Assembly: GCA_947447665.1 (NCBI GenBank)
Contig: CANFJX010000002.1
Span: 209,659 to 273,658, forward strand
Length of the DNA: 64,000 nucleotides
Direction: 5' to 3'
Source: Bacteriovoracaceae bacterium
Lineage (GTDB): Bacteria; Bdellovibrionota; UBA1018
A program made the translations under genes and the position numbers. The notes under the pieces are model-generated. The model had not been told where the DNA came from. It worked only from the letters and a program-made list of their open reading frames with translations, and did no database searches. Of this stretch, positions 17,796-33,206 are shown in pieces (position 1 is the stretch's first letter; each line of letters begins with the position of its first letter).

Positions 17796-18202
17796 ATGTA
17801 CATGATTTAGAGTCTGATGGACTCATCACTGAGATCAATGTCACACCCTTTGTCGATGTAGTATTAGTGCTACTCATCCTCTTCATGCTCGCAGCCCCGG
17901 CAGTCTACCAGTCAGCGCTTAAAGTAAAATTGCCTACTGTCACTTCTGCGAGTAAGGTGAAGCATGTCACACTTCATTTTTTTGTGAGTTCCAAAGGGGA
18001 GATTCAGGTGGATCGCGAGAGGATCCAAGCCCACGCAGTTGAGGCGCTTGTGAAGCGCGCAATTTCAATCGATCCAAACGCTGACGCGATGATCTCAGCA
18101 GATAAAAGCGTCGCCCATGGCAACGTAATTGAGATCATTGACCTGATCAAGACGAGTGGAATTCATGAAGTGGCTTTGGCGGCCACTGAGAGAAAGATTT
18201 AG
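17792..18202 (+). CDS. exbD: ExbD/TolR-family biopolymer transport protein
   Basis: 136 aa. The single TM helix carries the conserved Asp (PFVDVVLVLLILF). ATGA overlap with exbB. Confidence 0.85.
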   Translation: MNVHDLESDGLITEINVTPFVDVVLVLLILFMLAAPAVYQSALKVKLPTVTSASKVKHVTLHFFVSSKGEIQVDRERIQAHAVEALVKRAISIDPNADAMISADKSVAHGNVIEIIDLIKTSGIHEVALAATERKI

Positions 18203-18608
18203 CGGGCGCAACGAACTGATTTTGCATTGGCGTTGTAGTCGCCATGTGTGTAGCCATTATGTCCATTGCTAGCCGCAAAAGAAGTGGAGGACATGAGTGA
18301 AGGTCCCAGGGTCATTTGAGCCAACCATGCAAAAAATAGAACTTTATTAGGAATAAAAAAAAATTTAAATCTACTCATAAATAAATCACTTTTATTACTT
18401 AAATCGTTACTGGGCATCAAGACCACTGGTCAATCAATAGTTGATCACCCATGAGGCGTTAAAGCAATTCAAGTGCCAACTGGAAACAGTGTGACATTGC
18501 TTGAAATTTGAGGGTTTTTGCTTGTGATGTGTTTAGGTAGGGAAAGGGACTTACAGAGATGTCAAAAAGTTAATTGAAAAAAAGGCTCTCCAGCTCTAAT
18601 TCAAATGC

Positions 18609-19094
18609 TTAGAGCTGCTTTCGAGTGACGATCACGATCAGCTGTTCGCCTTGGAGCATGGGACAGGGCAAAACGAGATTCTTGCGAGTCTTACTTCCAG
18701 GGATCACTCGGACCACCTTCGACTCAAATAGACAACCCTCTTGAACAAAGATCTCTGCGTAATTAGCTTCTACTTTCGGCCAGTCACGGTCAAGGTAAGT
18801 CGAAACACGAATCTCAGGCGAGGGCGAAGACATCAAGTAATCGAATGTAGTGTCTTGGACGGCGACAGTGAGATCATCTGGGCTCTGAACCCCTTGCTGG
18901 ACCCGAATTTCAATCGTTTTCATCGCTTGTATATCGGCCATCAGCAGCTCAATGTCAAGCCGGAGGCGTTTTGGGTCTTCTTGGCTCAGACTTTGTTGAG
19001 CTAGGGTTGAGTTCCTATTTGCAGGAATCTCCAGGAGGCCGTAGTATTTTTTTAAGATCGACCTCGCTAGGAAGACTGATCGCCGCCTTGACAC
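18609..19094 (-). CDS. Hypothetical small protein (GTG start on the track; more likely about 110 aa from the internal Met), directly downstream of the 798-aa secreted protein
   Basis: The ORF overlaps the end of the 798-aa gene by 80 bp. No recognisable motif. Confidence 0.3.
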   Translation of the reverse strand: MSRRRSVFLARSILKKYYGLLEIPANRNSTLAQQSLSQEDPKRLRLDIELLMADIQAMKTIEIRVQQGVQSPDDLTVAVQDTTFDYLMSSPSPEIRVSTYLDRDWPKVEANYAEIFVQEGCLFESKVVRVIPGSKTRKNLVLPCPMLQGEQLIVIVTRKQL

Positions 19095-21411
19095 GGAATG
19101 AGCCGATGAGTTCCCGATTGTCCTGACTGATGTATCTCGAGCGATGATCAGTTGAGTCGATCCATTCGATTTTACGTGAAGGACTCATACTTGGCTCTTT
19201 TAGAAAATGGCTCAAGCCCTCATTGTATCGCTTTACCTCCAGGGTCGACGGGTAATCTTTGGTATGGCAAAAACTATCCAGGTAGCATATGCGCGCCAAG
19301 CGGATTAAGTTTTCTTCTTTCGATCGATCCATCTCCGAGAGAGCTACATAGATCAGCTCGGGGAAGGCCCCCTGATCCAACCCTCGCAGCTTTGAGTAAG
19401 GACATTCTGAGAAGAACTGCATTTTTTCTGCCTCGGTTTCGAATGGATGGTCAGCTAACTTGAGGGCGGCCACGAAAGCTTTCCACTTGCCGCGAAAATG
19501 AGGGAATTGAGACGCTTCAGCAAAGTCCATGGACTGGGGGAGTTTTCCGGTAGTTTGAGTCTGCTGGAGGACTAGATCAAGAATTTTTGGCCAATAAGGT
19601 TCAGATTTAACCTTGCTCATAAAGCTAAAAGCCACGGGCCATTGAAGATGACCTTGCATGGCTGTTTTCATCATCTGTTTAAAGAGTTCCTCTCGCACTG
19701 GATTAAATCGCTCGTCCCATTCAACTTCGCTTAAGAGTTCAGGGTCGCTTTGGTAGATGGACTCAAGATCGTTGCTCCGGCTGTAAGGGTGTTGATTTCG
19801 CTGGTTCAAAATGTCATCTAGGCTCACCGAAAGCTCACTACGCATAATTAGATATCTAGCCTTATTCAAGGGAGCGAGATCAGCAGATCCAAAACTACTT
19901 TGACTTCGATCTAAATTTAAAAAGATTCGTGCGGCTAGATGTTGAGCTTCGGTCAAATTTAACTGTCTAAGGACGTCAACTTGGTTCGTCTTCGAGTTGG
20001 GAGAGAGCTCTTCTGCAACTCCGCTTCGTTTTGGATCATCTAAAATTTGCGCAGCAAATAGCGCCCGCTGCAATAAATTCATTTCCGAAAATTTTGGAGA
20101 TGGAAGCTGAATTGGAACCTGTGAAATAGATTTCCAGCCCCGAGTCCGCTGAGGCAGCGTATCCAGTGATTCTAGAGACACCATCACTGCGGCGCTAATG
20201 TCGTTGGGGTTGTAATAGTTATGATATCCCGAGTGATCCTTTGCCTGAAATTTGGAAACAATCGAGAAGCCATTTGGCAATTCGACTTGCATTTTGATTC
20301 CTGATTTTGAAGTCATGGCCTGTCGAATGTCTGGGTGATTCACTAACGAATCATTCGCAAAAAAATTAGGTAAAATTAAATCATTCACGCCTGATTTTTT
20401 TGCAATCAGCTCCATGATTTTTTTAGCGTGATGCTCATGAAGGGCTGGGCCACTGATGGTCAGAATATAAGGCAGTTTCTTTCCGTCGGGCGTGGTCGCA
20501 TCGATGACGACGGTATACCCCTTGATTTTTTCACCTTCCTTAACCCAGTAAGCTTGAACTCCACGACTCAGAACGTAGTGAGGAACTGAGGCAATCGAGC
20601 AGTCACCTCCAAAGATACCTCGAAAGGGGGTAGCGGCAGTCGGGATCTCCTCTAGGGTGAGTGTTTTTGGGAAGAGATGGGCGCCTTCAGTGCTCACCGG
20701 GGTGGTAGCTTTCGCGATCTGCTTTCCGATAAAATCACGTTTCACTTGAACCCATCGCTCACCTAAAACTCCAAGTCCTGGAGTCACCCTCAGCTCGTCC
20801 ACCTGATTTTTAAGGTGTTCTAAATTAGATTGAGAGTAGATTTCGTTCAACTGATCACCCTTGACGGAATCGAGGAAGCTTTCAGGATTCCCTGGGGCTG
20901 CTTTTAAAATGGGATAGGCGCGGAGGTAACTTGAAACTCGTTTCTTAAAGTCCTCCTCTCGCTTTCTTACGTCTTTTTCCGAGCGAGCTGAGTCCTTCCA
21001 ATCTCTGAGAACCTTTTTAAAATCTAATGGGTCGGAACCACTCTTGATTGCAGCACGGAGGACAGCCAGGTCGTGAAAGAGAGAGTCCTGGATAGACTTG
21101 ATCGCCCTTGGGTCGACACGTCCTTCTGAGTCAAAATAACTGATCGAAAGCCTCTCGACGGAGTTAAAGGCCAAAGGCTTGGCCTCGGCCCCTAAAAGGT
21201 GATGAACCTCGTTAAGATTTTCAACGGTGAGCATCAGATTACGCCGATAGTCTAAATGAGTGGCAAAAAGTTTATCACCATAGAGGCGGTCGAGTGATCG
21301 CAAAAACGCTACGCGACTCAGTGCTGTCGATAGGTCAGGTTCGTCATTTCCCCCATAGCAAAGACTGCCATTCATCATCCATAAAATGACTATAACGATT
21401 AGGGAGCGCAT
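19015..21411 (-). CDS. Secreted hypothetical protein, 798 aa
   Basis: Signal peptide MRSLIVIVILWMMNGSLCYG. No confident domain assignment. Confidence 0.6.
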   Translation of the reverse strand: MRSLIVIVILWMMNGSLCYGGNDEPDLSTALSRVAFLRSLDRLYGDKLFATHLDYRRNLMLTVENLNEVHHLLGAEAKPLAFNSVERLSISYFDSEGRVDPRAIKSIQDSLFHDLAVLRAAIKSGSDPLDFKKVLRDWKDSARSEKDVRKREEDFKKRVSSYLRAYPILKAAPGNPESFLDSVKGDQLNEIYSQSNLEHLKNQVDELRVTPGLGVLGERWVQVKRDFIGKQIAKATTPVSTEGAHLFPKTLTLEEIPTAATPFRGIFGGDCSIASVPHYVLSRGVQAYWVKEGEKIKGYTVVIDATTPDGKKLPYILTISGPALHEHHAKKIMELIAKKSGVNDLILPNFFANDSLVNHPDIRQAMTSKSGIKMQVELPNGFSIVSKFQAKDHSGYHNYYNPNDISAAVMVSLESLDTLPQRTRGWKSISQVPIQLPSPKFSEMNLLQRALFAAQILDDPKRSGVAEELSPNSKTNQVDVLRQLNLTEAQHLAARIFLNLDRSQSSFGSADLAPLNKARYLIMRSELSVSLDDILNQRNQHPYSRSNDLESIYQSDPELLSEVEWDERFNPVREELFKQMMKTAMQGHLQWPVAFSFMSKVKSEPYWPKILDLVLQQTQTTGKLPQSMDFAEASQFPHFRGKWKAFVAALKLADHPFETEAEKMQFFSECPYSKLRGLDQGAFPELIYVALSEMDRSKEENLIRLARICYLDSFCHTKDYPSTLEVKRYNEGLSHFLKEPSMSPSRKIEWIDSTDHRSRYISQDNRELIGSFRVKAAISLPSEVDLKKILRPPGDSCK

Positions 21412-24170: not shown

Positions 24171-24866
24171 TTAAATTGAAGCTCCGAAATAAATCCAGGC
24201 CGGGATAATCAGGAATCCTACGCCGAGCAAGACGCCAAGAATTGCGCCTAGCAATCTGAGCGGCGTGGTCGTCCGACTTCGAGTCATACCAAGAGATTGA
24301 AGAGCGCTCCAGATCCCATGTCTTAGATGCAGTCCGAGAAGTATCATCACAACGCTATAAAAAAGAAACATCACAGGATTTTTCAAGGTCTCAACAACTA
24401 GGCGGTAGAGGTCTCGAATCTGCTCCTGACCCTGGGTTGCAATATAGCCCTGACTCATTCCTGGGCCGAAGCGAAACTGCCAAATATGGATGCCCAAGAA
24501 CAATAGAATGAGTGAGCCAGAAACCGCCATATTTCTGGAGGAAAGATTGCTCGGCGTGTCGCCCCCTTTGGATCGCCACTGGCGGTAGGCAACTGGGCGG
24601 GCATCGAGATTTCGTTTTTTTGTCGTGAGTACGGTGACAATATGAATCAAGAATATTGCGAGAAGTCCTATTTCAGCAACCGCCAGGAGGGGACCAAAAC
24701 TCTCGAGCTTGGCAGCATAGGCGTTGAACGCTGCTCCGTCCGACCGTAGAAGGGTCAAATTGCCAAGAAGGTGAACCACGACAAATCCTACTAGGCCGAG
24801 TCCGGACAAGGCGATGAGGAGCTTCTTAAAAACAGTAGTAAAACTTTTAACTTGCGGGTAGCTCAT
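24171..24866 (-). CDS. sdhC: Succinate dehydrogenase cytochrome b membrane anchor (single-subunit, 5-TM type)
   Basis: 231 aa polytopic membrane protein directly upstream of sdhA. Confidence 0.75.
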
Positions 24867-25044
24867 GATTCAAGCTTCAACCTTTCTCGCATTTTTATTC
24901 TGGAAAGCTATTTATAGTGAAATAGATCAGCATTTCAAGAAAATGTTTTTTATTCTGGGCGGTCCTGGGAACAACCTCAGTGCAAAATGACCGGTCTCTA
25001 CGAAGCCTACCCTGCAAGTATGGTTGATTTGAGGGAGAAATGCA

Positions 25045-25080
25045 TTTTAAAAAGGCGAAAAAGTCGGAAGGATTCCGAGC
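25045..25080 (-). terminator. Rho-independent terminator downstream of the small Cys/His-rich gene
   Basis: Minus-strand RNA contains UCGGAA-UCC-UUCCGA, a perfect 6-bp stem with a 3-nt loop (plus-strand coordinates 25064-25078). It is followed by CUUUUUCGCCUUUUU. Confidence 0.5.
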
Positions 25081-25152
25081 TTTTCTTGGGTTCTTTTTCC
25101 GTCTTCTGATTGTCGAATTTTTGACGGGCCTTCAGTAGCTCCAGAGCCTGCT

Positions 25153-25530
25153 TTAATGGTGTCCGCCATGCCCTCCATGTTCGCCGTGCCCATGGTCGTG
25201 GTCGTGGCCTCCGTGTCCATAACCCCAACCATATCCCCCACCGTACTCGTAACTGTAATAGCAATCGCACAGGTTGCAGCAATAGCCACTCAGGTCGCAC
25301 GAGTAGTAACCACAACTATAGACAGTGTAACTCAGATGAGTGACTCCGTCTTCGCCGTCCTCCATAAAGTCGAGAACGTCCGGTTCTAGATATCCCTGAG
25401 TCTCTGCCGCCTGGGTCGCGTTCAAGTCAAGAGTCTCCTCTCCTTTTTTGAAGGAGTCAGCCATGATTGGCGTGCTCATTAAGTTCAGTCCAAACAAAGC
25501 AGCTGAAAAAATCATTAAATTGTTTTTCAT
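25153..25530 (-). CDS. Small secreted Cys/Tyr/Gly-rich protein with a His/Gly-rich C-terminal tail (125 aa), putative metal-binding
   Basis: Internal start MKNNLMIFSAALFGLNLMSTPIMA is a signal peptide with GGGAG 7 nt upstream. The mature part includes YSCGYYSCDLSGYCCNLCDCYYSYEYGGGYGWGYGHGGHDHDHGHGEHGGHGGHH. The 5' extension on the ORF track (to 25647) lacks an RBS and overlaps the EamA gene. Confidence 0.6.
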   Translation of the reverse strand: MKNNLMIFSAALFGLNLMSTPIMADSFKKGEETLDLNATQAAETQGYLEPDVLDFMEDGEDGVTHLSYTVYSCGYYSCDLSGYCCNLCDCYYSYEYGGGYGWGYGHGGHDHDHGHGEHGGHGGHH

Positions 25531-25583
25531 TTTAATCACTCCCAAAATAAACCGCTGCTTAGGGTGTACCAACAAACGATCAG

Positions 25584-26429
25584 CTACACTCGGTCTGCAA
25601 GGCAGGTCCCCGCCGAGGCAGATATAATGAGTAAGATCGCCAGACATTGAGTGAAAGAAAGACTCTCGTGCAAAAAAATAAATCCTGAAAGGGCGGCTAA
25701 GACGGGTTCTAAACTCATTAAGATGCTAAAGGTCTTGTGGGGTAACTTCTTGAGCGCGACCATTTCTAAGGAGTAAGGTAGAGCGCTCGAAAGGAGGGCT
25801 ACCCCAAGTCCCCACGGGAGCAACTCGGGCCGGAAAAGCTGAGCTCCTTGTTGAACTATGCCAAAAGGTAGAACGACTAGAGCAGCGACGAGCATACCTG
25901 CAGCGGTTGCCTGGCCGCTGTGGACGTCAGTTCCGATTCGCTTTCCAAAAACAATATAGAGCGCCCAGCAGACACCCGCACCGAGAGCAAAACCAACTCC
26001 TGATAGTGAAATATTCTGGGTGGCGGTTGCCTGAAGTGGGAGAATCAAAAGAATCCCGCAGGCTGCCAAAATAGACCATAGAAAGTCGAGTCCGCGCCTA
26101 GATGCCACCACAGCCACTACCAAAGGACCTGTAAACTCTAAGGCTACGGCGATCCCGAGTGGAACACGCTCTAGGGATAAGTAAAAGAGGAGATTCATCC
26201 ACCCTAGGGAGGCTCCATAAAAGCCGATCATGAGTAGCTCATGCCTCTTCCACTTTCGCCTCCAGGGCCGCCAGAGAACTAAAAGAATTAAGCTCGCAAA
26301 AGCTAATCGAAGGGAAGTTGCCCCTAGGGGTCCAATCTTAGGAAATAGATGCTTAGCAAAAGAGGCTCCGGTCTGGATCGATACCATTGCCAAAACTAAA
26401 CTCAACGAAGGGTGGCTAAAATTAAGCAC
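25584..26429 (-). CDS. EamA/DMT-superfamily transporter
   Basis: 281 aa with 10 predicted TM segments and a duplicated EamA-like architecture. Confidence 0.8.
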   Translation of the reverse strand: MLNFSHPSLSLVLAMVSIQTGASFAKHLFPKIGPLGATSLRLAFASLILLVLWRPWRRKWKRHELLMIGFYGASLGWMNLLFYLSLERVPLGIAVALEFTGPLVVAVVASRRGLDFLWSILAACGILLILPLQATATQNISLSGVGFALGAGVCWALYIVFGKRIGTDVHSGQATAAGMLVAALVVLPFGIVQQGAQLFRPELLPWGLGVALLSSALPYSLEMVALKKLPHKTFSILMSLEPVLAALSGFIFLHESLSFTQCLAILLIISASAGTCLADRV

Positions 26430-27744
26430 TCCTCGTGCTTAGCATAGTCTCCTGATTTTCTCCGAAAATCTGCCTCAGATCAGGCGTCAGAAAAACGGAG
26501 TGGGGATCCATTTCTTTTCTGAGCCTCTGAAATTCTTCCCACTTTGGGTAAATCGACCGCAACTCTCCTGCCCCTAGAGAATGCAATTTTCCCCAGTGCG
26601 GACGTCCCTCGTATTTTCTAAAGATTTTTTCCATCGCATCAAAATAAGCCCGATGAGGCATTCCTTGATACATGTGCACCGCGATGAGCGCTGAGTCTCT
26701 GCCATAAGCTGGGCTCAACCAAATTGAGTCCCGTTTGACAAATCGACACTCAATGGGGAAGTGGACGCGATGATGACTTTTTTTGATCTCGGTCTGAATT
26801 TCTTGGACTACTTCTGGGAAGCTCTCGATCGGTACTGCGTACTCCATTTCTAAGAACTTTACCCATCTCTCTGTGGCAAAAACGCGGTGACTCCAATCCC
26901 TTCGATGACTCTCGCCCGCAGCTGCGGCGCAAAACTGGCTCACTTTTGGAGTAATCGGGGGGATCCACCGACAAATTCCGCTCAGAGCACCGAGTGCCAT
27001 ATTCTCCAGAACGATGTCATTGAATTTCTGGCCCAAGCTCGGGCTTAATGGGGATTCTTGGCTGATGTGGGAGCGTTTAACTAGAGCTGTCTCGGTGTGG
27101 GGGAACCAGAAGAACTCAAAATTTCTCTCGTCTTGAAGTTCTCGGCGAAAGTTGCTCATCAACGATCCCAGTGACTCTTTGGTTTGCCGCATTTCTAGGA
27201 TGTATTTTGGCTTTAATTTAAGCTGAATTTTGGTGATGACTCCCAAAGCGCCGAGAGATACACGAGCCGCGTCGAGGAGATCTGCGTTTTTTTTCTCATG
27301 AATCTCAACTTTTTGACCGAGCCCGTTCCAAAGCTCCATCCCCACGACTTGCGTCGAGAGACTGCCTAAATCAATTCCAGTCCCATGGGTTCCAGTACTG
27401 ACAGCTCCGGCAATCGATTGGACGTCGATATCCCCCAAATTCTCCATAGCATACCCTAGATCATGGAGTTGGGTACCTAGGGCTCGAATCGGTGTACCTC
27501 CCCAAACCCAGCCTTCGAGTCGACCTGGGTCGATCGCGACCACGCCCTGAAGGCCGCTCAAGCTCATTGAAATTCCAGGGGTAGCTACCAAAGGATAAAA
27601 TGAATGGCCACTGCCTATCACTCGAAGGGGCAGCTTTTCGCGAACTGCCCGGTGGATCACCGCTTCGACCTGTTTCTCCGACTCGATGGTTTCAGTCGCA
27701 GCCGGGGTAAAACTAACATTGCCTGCCCAATTGGTTTTGTTCAT
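26422..27744 (-). CDS. FAD-linked oxidase of the D-arabinono-1,4-lactone / L-gulonolactone oxidase family
   Basis: N-terminal FAD-binding PCMH region (RVIGSGHSF...GTHGTG) and a C-terminal ALO-like domain. 440 aa. Confidence 0.75.
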   Translation of the reverse strand: MNKTNWAGNVSFTPAATETIESEKQVEAVIHRAVREKLPLRVIGSGHSFYPLVATPGISMSLSGLQGVVAIDPGRLEGWVWGGTPIRALGTQLHDLGYAMENLGDIDVQSIAGAVSTGTHGTGIDLGSLSTQVVGMELWNGLGQKVEIHEKKNADLLDAARVSLGALGVITKIQLKLKPKYILEMRQTKESLGSLMSNFRRELQDERNFEFFWFPHTETALVKRSHISQESPLSPSLGQKFNDIVLENMALGALSGICRWIPPITPKVSQFCAAAAGESHRRDWSHRVFATERWVKFLEMEYAVPIESFPEVVQEIQTEIKKSHHRVHFPIECRFVKRDSIWLSPAYGRDSALIAVHMYQGMPHRAYFDAMEKIFRKYEGRPHWGKLHSLGAGELRSIYPKWEEFQRLRKEMDPHSVFLTPDLRQIFGENQETMLSTRSA

Positions 27745-27751
27745 TCAATCC

Positions 27752-29080
27752 TCACATCCATTGTTGGCCTTCCCCTCGGTAAGTGGGGGTTTCTTGTATC
27801 CATTGACCATCCCGAATTAGCTGAAGAGATGAGAACCGCTCACAGAGCTCTCCTGCCTTAGGATGGCGAAAAAAGATGAGGTCCCCCAGATGGATTTGGG
27901 ACTCGTTTGGAGTTTGGTACCGGACCGGTGTTTGAACTTCTCCAGCTCCTTCGAGCGAAAGAAGCTCTAGGTTGCTCGGTAGGTAAGGCGTGGGTAGACG
28001 ATCTGATCCAGCAGAGCCCGAAGCTGGATACCCGCCTCCGTTGCAGGTGATAACACCATTTTGAGGGCGCCGTGAAACTCGCAGTGCAAAACCCAATGAG
28101 GGCTGCAGAGTTAAATCCCTAAACGAGTCAAACAGCACGGGAGCGTAAAAACCACTGCCAACAGTCACCTCGGTGATGGAAGGATCTTGTGAGGTCCAGG
28201 CAAGGCTCCCGGTACCCCCACCATTGACAAACTCTAGCTCGACGTCATGATTTCTTAAGCAAGCAACGGCTTCTTGCCGTCTCTCTAAGACTTGGGACTT
28301 CGAACGTCTTTTTAAATGCTGAACCGCCCATCCTTTGAGCGTATTGGTGAGCGTATTGGAATAAAAATCTGGGACACCCGCAAGCTGGGCTTCATAAGCC
28401 ATGAGGCCGACCCATTCCACCCTAGGCCACTGTTTTCGAAGCGCTAACAGAGCGCTCAAGTCGTCGACCGTCTTAATCGACGACCGATACACGCCGAAAT
28501 GAAGAGGTCCAAAATCAGAGGAAACATCCAAATCGATTGCAACTCGGAGATTGAGACTCTCTGAATTGGCGTAATATTGGATCAAATCTAAATGCTCAGG
28601 TCGATCAGCCATCAAGGTGATTTGAGCTCCATTTTTTACCGCTTGGGCGAGTCCACGGAAATCGGCACTCTGTGCAGTGGGATATGCCACCAAGAAATCG
28701 TTCAAGCCCTTTTCAAAAAGCCAAACTGCCTCGGGAATGCTCATCGCTAAAATACCCTTGAAAATAGGGCTTCTTTTTAAAATAGTTTCCATTACCCAGC
28801 GAGACCGTAAAGACTTGCTGCCGATTCTTATTTTTTTTGAGTGAGACTGCTGTGAGATCCAATCCATATTCTTTTCGAATGCGACCAGGTCGAGCCATGC
28901 CAATGGGGCCATTTTTGATTTGAGGGCTTGACTGTATTCTACTAATAATTTTGATTTTAGTTCTTGAGAGATTTGGATGATACCCATCTGTTCACATTGT
29001 ACCCTCCTCTTTTGTTGAGGGCGAGAGTCATGATTTTGTCGGTCATTCAGAGCTTGGTCCGGGGTTTGCATGCTGCGCAA
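27752..29080 (-). CDS. PLP-dependent protein with an alanine-racemase-like N-terminal fold (DSD1 / D-threonine aldolase-like). The true start is probably internal.
   Basis: Core from about MAPLAWLDLVAFEK resembles D-serine dehydratase-like/YhfX-family proteins. The about 55 aa of 5' extension look non-native. Confidence 0.55.
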   Translation of the reverse strand: MRSMQTPDQALNDRQNHDSRPQQKRRVQCEQMGIIQISQELKSKLLVEYSQALKSKMAPLAWLDLVAFEKNMDWISQQSHSKKIRIGSKSLRSRWVMETILKRSPIFKGILAMSIPEAVWLFEKGLNDFLVAYPTAQSADFRGLAQAVKNGAQITLMADRPEHLDLIQYYANSESLNLRVAIDLDVSSDFGPLHFGVYRSSIKTVDDLSALLALRKQWPRVEWVGLMAYEAQLAGVPDFYSNTLTNTLKGWAVQHLKRRSKSQVLERRQEAVACLRNHDVELEFVNGGGTGSLAWTSQDPSITEVTVGSGFYAPVLFDSFRDLTLQPSLGFALRVSRRPQNGVITCNGGGYPASGSAGSDRLPTPYLPSNLELLSLEGAGEVQTPVRYQTPNESQIHLGDLIFFRHPKAGELCERFSSLQLIRDGQWIQETPTYRGEGQQWM

Positions 29081-29102: not shown

Positions 29103-29912
29103 ATGAATTCAGACCCTCAAACCTGTTCTATTCCTCAGGAGTGCCAACGATCTGCTCAGTGCAGAAAGCGCGATGAAGAGCTAAAGATCCTCAAGTCGAA
29201 AATGAGTATGCTCCAATCTCGAGAGGAGCTCTGGGCGATTCTTTCGCATGAGCTAAAAAGCCCACTGACAGCACTATCTATGATGAGTGAGCTGATTGAA
29301 CGGGAAAAGGGGGAATCTGAAAAAAACACAATGACCCAACGACTTTCTCACACCATTAAAACAACCGTTCATCAAATGCTGACCCTGACGTCGGACCTCA
29401 TTGATCTAAATAAATTGGAACAGGGCCATCTCAGACTTGAGCTCTCCAAGGTATCAGTTGAGAACCTCATCGAGGCCGCCTTTACGACCCACACCTTCTC
29501 TGCGGAAGCGAAGAAGATCCAACTAGAGGCGTGCCTATCTCCTCGTCATCTTTCAGTCGTTTGTGATCCCTCCCGAATCCTCCAGGTCTTATCTAACTTA
29601 TTAGGAAATGCGATTCGGTTCTCCCCCTCAGGGGGTAAGGTCTCGGTAGAGGCCTTTGAGCAGAAAAAGGAGGTAGTCATCCGCGTCAAAGACCAAGGTC
29701 AAGGGATTGACTCCCATCAAATTCCTCATTTGTTTGAAAAATTTTGGCAAGCGAAGCACCAAAATGGCCTCGGATTTGGACTTGGCCTCTTTATCACGAA
29801 AAAAATCATCGATGCTCATGGGGGGCGAATCTGGGTAGAGAGTGCCCCGCTTCAGGGAAGTTCCTTCTACGCTAGTTTACCCAATCTGGGAGTCAGTGAG
29901 TCTCTTCAGTGA
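29103..29912 (+). CDS. Cytoplasmic sensor histidine kinase (HisKA + HATPase_c); no cognate response regulator adjacent
   Basis: H-box ILSHELKSPLTAL. N/G boxes LLGNAIRFS and GLGLGLFITKKIIDAHGG. Confidence 0.8.
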   Translation: MNSDPQTCSIPQECQRSAQCRKRDEELKILKSKMSMLQSREELWAILSHELKSPLTALSMMSELIEREKGESEKNTMTQRLSHTIKTTVHQMLTLTSDLIDLNKLEQGHLRLELSKVSVENLIEAAFTTHTFSAEAKKIQLEACLSPRHLSVVCDPSRILQVLSNLLGNAIRFSPSGGKVSVEAFEQKKEVVIRVKDQGQGIDSHQIPHLFEKFWQAKHQNGLGFGLGLFITKKIIDAHGGRIWVESAPLQGSSFYASLPNLGVSESLQ

Positions 29913-30803: not shown

Positions 30804-33206
30804 GTGCGAGTCAAGTCAGATCAAGGGATGAAAGCCACCCGTAACCGACCGATCAATCGTAGTCAGGCCTATTTCGATTGTAATGCTACTACTCCTGTAT
30901 TTTCCAAGGCAGCCAAGGCTGCTCTCGCAGTCATGCAAGAACAGTATGGGAATCCGAGTAGCTCTCATAAAATCGGACTCCAGGCTCGGCGCCTGTTAGA
31001 GTCGAGTCGAAAAACAGTAGCAAAATCTGTGGGGGCAAAACCTGAACAGATCGTTTTTACTAGCGGAGCGACCGAATCAATTCAGACCGCTATTTTTTCT
31101 TGTCTGCAATTCTGGAAGAACCATCCCAATCTCCCGGATCGGCCAAAAATTCTATTTTTATCCACTGAACACAAAGCGGTTCCAGAGGCGATTCATCATT
31201 GGGTTAAAACTCTTGAGTTGAATTACGAGCTCGTTGAGCTTCCAGTGGACTCCAACGGCCAGATCGAGTTTCAAAAATTAAAATCAGAACTCCCCAAGGC
31301 CATTCTTCTTTGTACGATGTGGGTTAATAATGAGACTGGCGTGATCCAGAAACTCGATGAGATCGAGAAGCTCCTAGTGCAGCAGAAGTCTCAAGCTCTC
31401 TGGCTCATCGACGGAGTCCAAGCACTCGGAAAATTGGACATGCACCTCAACTCCACTCGGATCGATTATGCAGTTTTCAGCGGGCATAAGATCTATGCAC
31501 CCAAAGGCATTGGATTTCTTTACTTTAAGCGGGAAGAGATCTTTCATCCTTTAATGGTGGGAGGTGGCCAGGAAAAGGGACATCGCTCGGGATCAGAAAA
31601 CCTCCCAGGAGTGGTTGGACTTGGGGTTGCGCTAGACGGCCTGAGCGATCGTGCAGGCCGGTCTCCTTTTCAGCCTTCCGCGAGGCTCTTTGAATATCGT
31701 CATCAAATTCTTACATCGCTCCGAGAATCTTTTCCTAGTGTGGTTTTAAATACCCCACTTGACTGCTCAGTCCCCACGACGATTAACTTCTCGATGCCGG
31801 GGTTTAAAAGCAGTGAACTTTTGGATGTTTTTGATTCGGTGGGCTTAAGAGTCAGCGCGGGCTCTGCCTGTACCTCTGCTTCGGCCGAGCCCAGTCACGT
31901 GCTCACAGCGATGGGCGTTCCGGACTGGAGGAGTCGATCATCTATTCGTTTGTCTTTCGGACCTCTCACGTCCCAAAAAGAAGTAGATCGAGCTTGCAAA
32001 TTACTCAAGAAGTCTGCTTCGGCGCTCTCGGATTCGGGACTTTTATCCCGCGCTGTTTCGAGGAAGACCATTTCAAACGATTTAAACGGGGTCATCCAGT
32101 TACGCTCAGGTCCGATCAATAGCTGGCTGATTTTAAATAATACGGCTAAAACCTGCATCATCATCGATCCAGTGTCATCAATTTTTGATCGAGTCACTCA
32201 GGTCGTAAGATCGCATGATTTTAAGGTTCTCGCGGTCCTCGACACCCACGACCATGCAGATCATGAAACGGCTCGACCGACTCTTCAATCTGAGCTTGTG
32301 GACCAGATCAGCTCCGAAGCTGTGTCTCTCGGATTGCTGGGTTGGCCTATGGTGGGTCGAAGTAGAACAAGAGTCCTCCTGAAAAGTGGCGATCTTGCAG
32401 ACGCTCTCATTTTAGAAACTCGAGGCGACTCGATGATCGTTCTTGCCCGAGTCGAGACCCCCGGACACACTGAAAATAGTACGACTTATTTATTTGGCTC
32501 TGCCCGAGAAGGGGCGGCTCTTCAGGTGCAAATGGCATTTTGCGGAGACTTAATTTTGAGCGGTGGGATCGGACGCTCAGACCTTGGTCCAGGCGATACA
32601 CAACAGCTTTTCTACTCTTTAGCCAAAATCAAGGAAATCACCCAAGAGAACACACTTTTTTGCTCAGCTCATGATTATGTCAATAGTTTTGCAACCACCT
32701 TTAAAAGAGAACTGAATACCAGTGAGATTCTAAGACTGACTCTCAATCCTGAAAGTCAGACAAACTTAACGTCATTTGTAAAAAATAAGAACCATCTCGA
32801 TGAAGAGCTTCGGGATCAAGGACAAAAACTACAGGCCGTTCTATGTGGGGTCACGTCTGCCCCATCGCTTGATCGGCAGTCATCGAGCTCTATTTCAATT
32901 TCTGAGCTCGATGCTTTTTTAAATCAAGTGTCTACTCCTCCCCTTCAATTGATTGATGTTAGAGAGCGACAGGAATTTATTCTATGTAAAAATTGGAAGC
33001 AATTAGGTCTTAAAGAAGCCCCGAGAAATGTCCCTCTCTCCCAGTTAGTTAATTTAATGAGCGAACTGTTAAACACCCAAGACCCTCAGCCCCGACTTCT
33101 TTTTCTTTGTCGAAGCGGAAATCGAAGTCTTCAAGCAGCTCAGGCCCTTCGGCAAATCGGCTACCTCTCAGTCTGGAGTTTAGAAGGCGGAATTTCAATT
33201 CTCTGA
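30804..33206 (+). CDS. Tri-domain fusion: class-V aminotransferase cysteine desulfurase (NifS/IscS-like), metallo-beta-lactamase fold (persulfide dioxygenase-like) and rhodanese
   Basis: Desulfurase PLP-Lys context SGHKIYAPKGIGF and active-site Cys SAGSACTSA. MBL motif LDTHDHADH. Rhodanese active-site loop CRSGNRS. 800 aa. Confidence 0.8.
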   Translation: MRVKSDQGMKATRNRPINRSQAYFDCNATTPVFSKAAKAALAVMQEQYGNPSSSHKIGLQARRLLESSRKTVAKSVGAKPEQIVFTSGATESIQTAIFSCLQFWKNHPNLPDRPKILFLSTEHKAVPEAIHHWVKTLELNYELVELPVDSNGQIEFQKLKSELPKAILLCTMWVNNETGVIQKLDEIEKLLVQQKSQALWLIDGVQALGKLDMHLNSTRIDYAVFSGHKIYAPKGIGFLYFKREEIFHPLMVGGGQEKGHRSGSENLPGVVGLGVALDGLSDRAGRSPFQPSARLFEYRHQILTSLRESFPSVVLNTPLDCSVPTTINFSMPGFKSSELLDVFDSVGLRVSAGSACTSASAEPSHVLTAMGVPDWRSRSSIRLSFGPLTSQKEVDRACKLLKKSASALSDSGLLSRAVSRKTISNDLNGVIQLRSGPINSWLILNNTAKTCIIIDPVSSIFDRVTQVVRSHDFKVLAVLDTHDHADHETARPTLQSELVDQISSEAVSLGLLGWPMVGRSRTRVLLKSGDLADALILETRGDSMIVLARVETPGHTENSTTYLFGSAREGAALQVQMAFCGDLILSGGIGRSDLGPGDTQQLFYSLAKIKEITQENTLFCSAHDYVNSFATTFKRELNTSEILRLTLNPESQTNLTSFVKNKNHLDEELRDQGQKLQAVLCGVTSAPSLDRQSSSSISISELDAFLNQVSTPPLQLIDVRERQEFILCKNWKQLGLKEAPRNVPLSQLVNLMSELLNTQDPQPRLLFLCRSGNRSLQAAQALRQIGYLSVWSLEGGISIL

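Follow-up and report, generated by a model that had tools for sequence, protein, structure and literature searches.

A putative exported metal-binding mini-protein with an invariant Cys/Tyr core and a His/Gly-rich tail

What is the role of a small bacterial protein that carries an export signal, a short core dense in Cys and Tyr, and a tail rich in His and Gly, and that belongs to no named family? The question is raised by a gene on the minus strand of a 64,000-nucleotide stretch of contig CANFJX010000002.1 (hereafter the window), where it lies between a gene for an EamA-family exporter and the sdhCAB genes. The product is best described as a new, very narrowly distributed family within the broad kind of exported His-rich metal-binding proteins. 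Read from sequence, it is quite possibly, though short of probably, an exported mini-domain that is stabilised by disulfides, binds Cu, Zn, or Ni through a flexible tail, and acts as an envelope metal buffer, scavenger, or donor.

The gene is confirmed to be real and under selection because its frame, Cys pattern, and His tail are kept in four orthologues and its ratio of nonsynonymous to synonymous substitution rates (dN/dS) is 0.20. Gene calls on five contigs of independent samples gave the identical protein, and there is also a variant with a single change, E95G. The first-pass annotation, made from the letters of the window alone, had placed the gene at 25045-25647, a span that runs from the terminator to a far-upstream in-frame ATG. 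The actual coding sequence is 25153-25530 (-), and its translation yields exactly CGYYSC, YCCNLCDC, YEYGGGYGWGYG, and GHGGHDHDHGHGEHGGHGGHH. The 164-residue open reading frame (ORF) that begins with the ATG at 25647 is an in-frame upstream extension, and this ATG overlaps the 3′ end of the EamA gene. The true start is almost certainly the ATG at 25530, since a GGGAG Shine-Dalgarno sequence lies 8 nucleotides upstream of it; the gene therefore has a ribosome-binding site of its own, as first proposed.

The precursor is divided into five segments, of which the first is a predicted Sec-type signal peptide. Its n-, h-, and c-regions can be read directly as MKNN, LMIFSAALFGLNLM, and STPIMA, with DS following the predicted cleavage site. 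The next segment, residues 25-72, is acidic and has a net charge of about -10. The mature protein has 101 residues, including 20 Gly, 12 Tyr, 10 His, 10 Asp, 8 Glu, and 6 Cys, with a pI of 4.5 and a net charge of about -15. The signal peptide, the acidic region, a mature length near 100 residues with much Gly and Tyr, the CGYYSC and YCCNLCDC contexts, and the His/Gly C-terminal tail had all been described in the first-pass annotation and are all present. The count of seven Cys given there has to be corrected to six, at residues 73, 78, 84, 85, 88, and 90. An AlphaFold2 model from a three-sequence alignment is uninformative overall, with a mean predicted local distance difference test score (pLDDT) of 40 and a predicted template modelling score of 0.20. 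The core is the only segment that reaches a pLDDT of 50-57, where a small beta-hairpin is predicted at low confidence, and the low-confidence model has no helices except one four-residue turn. Tandem-repeat slippage was rejected as the origin of the tail, as the DNA is not a simple repeat and contains only two marginal arrays of 2.2-2.5 copies.

The orthologue set consists of the window protein and four others (P0002, P0003, and those at loci L088 and L090). A HMMER scan of 1.84 billion representative proteins returned P0002 and P0003 as the only relatives. A search with the neighbouring flavin adenine dinucleotide (FAD)-linked oxidoreductase revealed loci L088 and L090, where an orthologue occupies the same slot. 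The family was found only in about five uncultured, probably Bdellovibrio-like bacteria. All five proteins have a signal peptide ending A/D or A/E, followed by a spacer of 42-56 residues that is barely alignable. The core pattern C-G-Y-Y-x-C-x3-G-Y-C-C-N-x-C-x-C-Y-Y is found in every member; 14 of its 20 positions are invariant (six Cys, five Tyr, two Gly, and the Asn), and the remainder of the protein is about 45% identical. In all but one of the five orthologues the total number of Cys is even, in keeping with disulfides in an exported protein. After the core come 8-11 His and 14-21 Gly in each of the five, despite changed sequence, changed length, and indels. Such conservation of His and Gly counts amid sequence turnover indicates that composition itself is selected, in keeping with multivalent metal ligation. 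The proposal had been said at the outset to fail if homologues were without the His tail or the Cys pattern; all four orthologues keep the six core Cys and the His-rich tail. The orthologue at L088 (8228-8620) starts MNRRFFGK, a twin-arginine (Tat-like) n-region unlike that of the other four, and has a tail that is a near-perfect (GGH)5.

The dN/dS of 0.20 was obtained for the closest pair, L083 and L090, where the other genes of the neighbourhood have values of 0.00-0.16, and the small gene is clearly under purifying selection. For more distant pairs its dN is 0.43-0.52 versus 0.05-0.33 for the neighbouring genes, so that no other gene of the neighbourhood evolves as fast. Identity between the window and L083 is 56-90% for the neighbours and about 47% for the small protein, which is beneath tblastn reporting. 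The protein is a rigidly constrained core within segments that keep composition, not sequence. It is extremely improbable that the ORF is spurious or decaying, an apparent protein produced by biased nucleotide composition between the EamA gene and sdhC. Several long alternative-frame and antisense ORFs in the region and the lack of a database name or known domain would suit such an origin, but frame, signal peptide, Cys pattern, and tail are kept in five species whose neighbouring genes have diverged to the extent just given, and the low dN/dS, the ribosome-binding site, and a conserved upstream block all argue against it. The alternative-frame and antisense ORFs overlap the small gene at 25007-25389 on both strands, for example 25156-25389 (+) with 77 residues and 25007-25315 (-) with 102 residues; they appear to be by-products of the biased codon composition of the small gene, not genes.

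No named family accommodates the protein, in agreement with the first reading. Profile searches of Pfam, NCBIfam, and the PDB and two very large protein searches gave orthologues only. With all five members as queries against Pfam and NCBIfam at E<=1, nothing was found except two chance matches, both confined to the window protein: an aminotransferase fragment and NCBIfam NF047414, "His-rich protein BRANT". Membership of BRANT was rejected, as the match scores 13.9 bits (E=0.085) against a cut-off of 44 bits, covers residues 7-41 in the signal peptide region, and occurs in one of the five orthologues. The PDB profile matches were chance hits to "YYC...GYC" in antibody complementarity-determining region 3, with E of at least 0.04. 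By sequence-profile search, which compares no folds, the 20-residue core is without a relative among solved structures. When the single protein was searched by word index against 5.8 billion clusters, it matched only itself. A three-sequence profile against 5.8 billion clusters gave P0004 (E=3), which was rejected as a compositional look-alike in an ECF-sigma/RsgI context. A metagenome scan with the profile gave 279 pattern matches, of which 0 were confirmed, and a scan of viral contigs gave 0 matches. The sole match of a metagenome scan with the back-translated core motif, L084, was a chance one to an out-of-frame antisense ORF of an unrelated gene. The literature search returned nothing on BRANT or on bacterial Gly/His/Tyr periplasmic copper proteins, and nothing of use on RpoN in Bdellovibrio. 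A separate small protein with a signal peptide, extremely rich in His (AHNHKADDSHYQHAGHDHHKNHHHNHHKDYHKHVHKK...), is encoded at L077 13727-13908 (+) in a Bacteriovoracaceae metagenome-assembled genome (MAG), a few kb downstream of an sdh operon; it is truncated by the end of the locus and is not homologous to the present family.

How might such a protein work? Its Sec-type signal peptide would direct translocation in the unfolded state, with cleavage after Ala24. In the oxidising envelope, the six invariant Cys would form disulfides and produce a compact mini-domain studded with Tyr; alternatively, only some of the Cys may be paired, leaving the adjacent Cys-Cys free. The flexible Gly/Tyr/Trp linker and the His/Gly/Asp tail would present 8-11 imidazoles, together with carboxylates, able to bind several divalent ions such as Cu2+, Zn2+, or Ni2+. 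The result would be a periplasmic or extracellular metal buffer, scavenger, or donor. The acidic N-terminal spacer would serve solubility and evolve almost freely, as its divergence in part shows. Among the roles first suggested, namely a metal buffer or chaperone, an adhesive or biomineral peptide, and a substrate for crosslinking, metal binding is favoured indirectly, by the selection on tail composition and by an azurin-like neighbour in three of the five genomes.

The identity of the metal is only hinted at. Copper is hinted at by an azurin/auracyanin-like neighbour in three of the five genomes and by GGH and HGG(G) runs beside Trp and Tyr. This neighbour is a 227-residue Copper-bind gene between the small gene and sdhC (L083 10515-11198, L088 8741-9424, and L090 6489-7172), and its product has the ligand motif C-T-F-P-G-H-x-x-x-M. 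Loops that bind Zn or Ni typically contain HDHDH and HGGH runs, and the HDHDH runs of the tail, along with a possible parallel to the zinc protein ZraP, are a hint of zinc or nickel.

The upstream and downstream signals bear on when the protein would be made. The spacer between the EamA gene and the small gene, aligned over four loci, has diverged except for a TTGGTA-N5-TAAGCA block. The block is identical at L001, L002, L083, L088, L089, and L090, is absent from the other 86 of 92 loci, and ends 25-29 nucleotides before the start codon at every orthologous locus. Its GG and GC are 12 nucleotides apart, matching the geometry of sigma54 promoters (TGGCAC-N5-TTGCW). A sigma70 reading, with TTGGTA as the -35 element, was rejected, as a matching -10 element is present only in the window and is not conserved. 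The block is regarded as a functional promoter or operator element, for which a sigma54 identity is plausible. A perfect sigma54 consensus, TGGCACTTGAATTGCT, is located at 18463-18478 (-), upstream of another small ORF. By estimate, a perfect match would arise by chance about 0.015 times in 64 kb, and the organism therefore probably uses sigma54. About 35 nucleotides downstream of that perfect site is a 72-residue ORF, 18199-18417 (-), convergent with exbB/exbD, with a hydrophobic signal-like N-terminus and a C-terminus that reads SNGHNGYTHGDYNANAKSVRCAR; it may be a second small exported protein under sigma54 control.

Beyond the small gene, 62-90 nucleotides past the stop codon, is a terminator-like hairpin with a 6-bp stem that is lengthened by A/U pairs and followed by CTTTTTCGCCTTTTT, flanked by an A-run and CUUUUUCGCCUUUUU. 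At the equivalent place in L083, L088, and L090 there is a hairpin and a conserved CTTTTTAG run. A terminator scan found five terminator-like sites in the region versus 2.5 expected, and the regional fold z-score is -0.78. What had been called a clean rho-independent terminator is thus a terminator-like hairpin with a counterpart in relatives, modest rather than clean. No Rfam elements were found near the small gene. The description of the gene as stand-alone is fairly well supported by the promoter-like block before it, the hairpin after it, and the occurrence of the neighbouring ALR-ALO module without the gene in distant lineages. The conserved upstream block and the downstream terminator-like hairpin suggest a separate, inducible transcription unit. 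It would probably be driven by an activator-dependent sigma54-type promoter and closed by an intrinsic terminator, so that a specific signal would switch the gene on in place of constitutive expression.

Several points weigh against an exported metal-binding role under sigma54 control. Three positions of the upstream block do not match the sigma54 consensus, one of them the T at -14 that is usually conserved, and neither the window nor the related loci encode an enhancer-binding protein with a GAFTGA motif. The window gene has no metal transporter and no metal regulator next to it. Neither the 64-kb window nor the P0002 contig has the azurin-like gene. Where this gene does occur, an AT-rich region of its own with a conserved palindrome, AAGTTTA-N8-TAAACTT, lies upstream of it, which makes it a separate transcription unit; the genomes are closely related, and the linkage of the azurin-like gene to the small gene may be a coincidence. 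Cu(I) in the periplasm is usually held by Met and His, not Cys. The very high Tyr content of the core is unexplained by metal binding, and a dN above that of every neighbour is seen more often in surface, adhesive, or conflict proteins than in housekeeping chaperones. The AlphaFold2 model, finally, gives no confident fold.

The invariant Tyr and the fast evolution would be better accounted for by a structural or adhesive matrix protein, cross-linked by disulfides, dityrosine, or Cys-Tyr bonds and by His-metal bridges, and incorporated into a holdfast, a prey-attachment structure, a cyst wall, or a layer of the envelope. Gly makes up 20% of the mature protein, Tyr 12%, His 10%, and Cys 6%, and most of the chain is predicted to be disordered; invariant Tyr flank every Cys; and outside the core the protein evolves fast, with composition kept and sequence not. 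High-glycine-tyrosine (HGT) keratin-associated proteins and Gly/His-rich jaw proteins are analogues in animals, as is the mussel protein Mfp-6, described in an excerpt of one account as a Cys- and Tyr-rich secreted protein (PMC13208468). A structural role is nevertheless unlikely. The protein is strongly acidic, whereas adhesive mussel foot proteins are basic; it is single copy with an unrepeated core; it has no anchoring signal; no tyrosinase, peroxidase, laccase, or sortase-type gene was found nearby at L001, L083, L088, and L090; and the family is tiny, with nothing known of such a structure in these organisms. The order of a signal peptide, a hypervariable acidic region, and a conserved Cys-rich C-terminal part is also that of an antimicrobial or toxin-like precursor, in which an anionic pro-region masks a disulfide-rich, Gly/His-rich peptide directed against prey or rivals, possibly in a metal-dependent manner. 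Gly/His-rich shepherins and insect Gly/His antifungal peptides offer the comparison, the (GGH)5 tail of L088 resembles shepherins, the gene is the fastest-evolving of its neighbourhood, and the best SdhA match, 76% to a Bdellovibrionota MAG, suggests a Bdellovibrionota-like lineage. That placement is weak, as Acidobacteriota are next at 73-74%, and there is no dibasic or similar processing site between pro-region and core, no cationic character of the C-terminal part at neutral pH, no adjacent immunity, export, or protease gene, and no overall sign of positive selection at a dN/dS of 0.20. An antimicrobial function is accordingly judged quite unlikely.

The remaining rival keeps the metal and changes the chemistry. 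In it the protein would be a Sec-exported ribosomally synthesised and post-translationally modified peptide (RiPP) precursor of bufferin or methanobactin type, with some of the core Cys converted by enzymes encoded elsewhere in the genome into metal-binding heterocycles for periplasmic copper chelation. The Sec-type signal, the six invariant Cys, and the copper-protein neighbour in three of five genomes would suit it, and bufferin precursors are likewise Sec-signalled, Cys-bearing, and copper-binding (PMC11626156). At L001, L083, L088, and L090, however, Pfam tables show no MNIO/DUF692 or DUF2063 gene within 10 kb upstream or 4-10 kb downstream (by locus), no radical-SAM, YcaO, or RRE-type (RiPP recognition element) gene is found nearby, and none of the five members matches DUF2282 or another precursor model in Pfam or NCBIfam, all of which leaves this explanation very unlikely. 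A more elaborate form of the metal-binding proposal combines a six-Cys, Tyr-studded knot with a prion-octarepeat-like or GGH-like Gly/Trp/Tyr/His tail under sigma54 control, which either delivers copper to a periplasmic blue-copper (azurin-like) protein or undergoes metal-triggered self-assembly or cross-linking into extracellular material. In the latter version it would be the bacterial equivalent of those Gly/His/Tyr proteins of marine invertebrates that are hardened by metal. As a whole this combination has a small chance of being right.

Against this background, the exported metal-binding mini-protein can be compared with known systems. ZraP has Gly/His-rich termini. It is a small Sec-exported periplasmic zinc-binding protein with its own sigma54-dependent promoter that responds to metal and envelope stress (PMC4987338). 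The small protein shares small size and Sec-type export with ZraP, a chaperone of the CpxP/Spy/ZraP group of Enterobacteria, whereas its sigma54 promoter is only putative. ZraP is built on a helical LTXXQ-type domain without a Cys-knot core, and the five members of the present family match no family profile in Pfam or NCBIfam. The small gene is also without an adjacent ZraSR-like pair, and its block, with -24/-12 geometry, has the deviations and lacks the GAFTGA-type activator noted above. Bufferin precursors (BufA; DUF2282, BUF_6/12Cys) have 80-120 residues, Sec signal peptides, and 4, 6, or 12 conserved Cys, and they sequester periplasmic copper; their clusters are defined by an adjoining MNIO (DUF692) and a DUF2063 partner, and as described they are without a Gly/Tyr/His tail (PMC11626156). 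The likeness, a Sec signal on a small Cys-bearing precursor, extends to all five orthologues; the differences are the adjacent MNIO/DUF2063 genes (four loci) and the DUF2282-type sequence (five members), neither of which was found for the small gene. MbnA, the methanobactin precursor, consists of a short leader and core with no signal peptide, and its gene adjoins those for MbnB (DUF692) and MbnC, whereas the small protein is a 125-residue precursor with a signal and has no DUF692 gene nearby. The C-G-x-x-x-C and C-x-C spacing of the core presumably resembles that of MbnA cores.

In Hpn, HypB, SlyD, and UreE, several Ni or Zn ions are bound by runs of His with Gly, Asp, and Glu in between. The tail had been likened to those of HypB, Hpn, and SlyD, and the likeness is sound in composition but not in location, as those proteins are cytoplasmic and the small protein is exported. 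Moreover, in Hpn, HypB, SlyD, and UreE the cytoplasmic tails are joined to GTPase, peptidyl-prolyl isomerase, or urease-accessory domains, whereas the small protein has a Cys/Tyr core and no homology to them; a His-rich tail of SlyD is described in an excerpt of one report (PMC3292732). Metallothioneins and CC-motif copper proteins (SmtA/BmtA, Cox17, and CopG) resemble the core in dense Cys, adjacent Cys-Cys, and C-x-C. In Cox17 and CopG, such Cys motifs hold copper in oxidising compartments. Classical metallothioneins are without aromatic residues, whereas the core has five invariant Tyr; the small protein has no metallothionein, CopG, or Cox17 match in Pfam, and the low-confidence AlphaFold2 model contains no evidence of a thioredoxin-like or CHCH fold. 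Keratin-associated HGT proteins, Mfp-6, shepherins, and worm-jaw His-rich proteins are alike only in Gly/Tyr/Cys or GGH composition. These eukaryotic low-complexity analogues are secreted and metal-binding or cross-linking, but they belong to a different kingdom, are mostly basic, and have no homology to the acidic small protein.

On the more elaborate reading, to which a small chance was given above, the protein would be the first known of a new bacterial class of exported mini-proteins. If the tail binds metal, it would be a previously unrecorded type of exported metal handling, in which a tiny disulfide or Cys-Cys core is joined to a natural poly-His/Gly tail and evolution proceeds by keeping composition rather than sequence. 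It would then add to the short list of periplasmic metal buffers that includes ZraP, bufferins, and CopG-type proteins, and it might throw light on the metallation of blue-copper proteins in an uncultured lineage of predators. The composition of the protein is unusual, as is its 20-residue core with six Cys and five Tyr, which might attract interest as a scaffold of minimal size. With the family confined to about five uncultured species, its practical reach is limited.

Table 1. Coordinates in the window of the small gene, its segments, its signals, and its flanking genes.
Feature	Position	Strand	Basis
Precursor coding sequence, 125 residues	25153..25530	-	stop TAA at 25153-25155; translation, orthologue frame, dN/dS
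Signal peptide, residues 1-24, predicted cleavage IMA/DS	25459..25530	-	basic n-region, hydrophobic h-region, small residue at -1, read from sequence
Acidic fast-evolving spacer or pro-region, residues 25-72	25315..25458	-	12 D+E vs 2 K+R; pLDDT <50
Invariant Cys/Tyr core, residues 73-92, CGYYSCDLSGYCCNLCDCYY	25255..25314	-	motif in all five orthologues
Gly/Tyr/Trp-rich linker, residues 93-104, SYEYGGGYGWGY	25219..25254	-	G, Y, W composition kept; length and sequence vary
His/Gly/Asp tail, residues 105-125, GHGGHDHDHGHGEHGGHGGHH	25156..25218	-	8-11 His after core in every orthologue
Shine-Dalgarno sequence GGGAG, 8 nucleotides from ATG	25539..25543	-	read from sequence; purine-rich counterparts at orthologous loci
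Conserved block TTGGTACACCCTAAGCA, candidate sigma54-type -24/-12 promoter	25556..25572	-	spacer alignment and locus comparison
Terminator-like hairpin AAAAGC-UCGGAA-UCC-UUCCGA-C-UUUUU, then second U-run	25049..25084	-	terminator scan and fold
Upstream neighbour, EamA-family (RhtA-like) exporter	25584..26429	-	Pfam EamA 1.4e-31; NCBIfam RhtA 327.6 bits, under 354-bit cut-off
Downstream neighbour, sdhC/frdC-like membrane subunit, first of sdhCAB	24171..24866	-	weak Pfam Sdh_cyt match; flavoprotein and Fe-S subunits next

The genomic setting is well conserved among the orthologues. In all five genomes the order is an Ala_racemase_N-like fold-type-III pyridoxal phosphate (PLP) enzyme, a TIGR01679 FAD-linked oxidoreductase (ALO-like), the EamA/RhtA-like exporter, the small gene, and sdhCAB. 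The EamA gene, pointed out in the first-pass annotation as a neighbour, is on the same strand and ends 53 nucleotides upstream of the small gene, a position kept at all orthologous loci. It is probably irrelevant to the small protein because EamA proteins move small molecules. On the other side, a 286-nucleotide spacer that holds a promoter-like TTGAAA-N16-TATAAA separates the small gene from sdhC. Distant Bdellovibrionales (L093 3801-8062; L094 3718-8023) have the PLP-FAD (ALR-ALO) pair followed by an alkaline ceramidase (PF04734), without EamA or the small gene. The ALR-like/ALO/EamA block was rejected as an explanation for the small gene on this ground, as no functional coupling can be inferred when distant ALR-ALO pairs are without it. 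The small gene is also absent from the other Bdellovibrionota loci reached via SdhA, where unrelated genes are upstream of sdhC. Because it is missing from the equivalent places in distant Bdellovibrionales and other Bdellovibrionota, the small gene is a lineage-specific addition, and its neighbours are little guide to its function.

Other genes of the window are of separate interest. At 26422-29080 (-), the PLP enzyme and the TIGR01679 oxidoreductase form a conserved pair whose third partner is EamA here and a ceramidase in distant Bdellovibrionales, which suggests an uncharacterised small-molecule pathway, possibly of sphingoid or amino-alcohol type. Divergent from the PLP-enzyme gene, at 29103-29912 (+), is a gene for a 269-residue histidine kinase that has HisKA and HATPase_c only, with no membrane or sensor domain besides an N-terminus that contains Cys (C-x5-C-x5-C); L083 and L090 have this gene and L088 does not. 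Directly after sdhB, at 19015-21411 (-), is a gene for a 798-residue protein with a signal-like N-terminus and no Pfam or NCBIfam match, and in L083, L088, and L090 this position is occupied by a UbiE-type methyltransferase. At 30804-33206 (+), an 800-residue fusion joins a NifS-like class-V aminotransferase to metallo-beta-lactamase-like and rhodanese parts; its relatives have 792-797 residues, and it may be a sulfur-trafficking enzyme.

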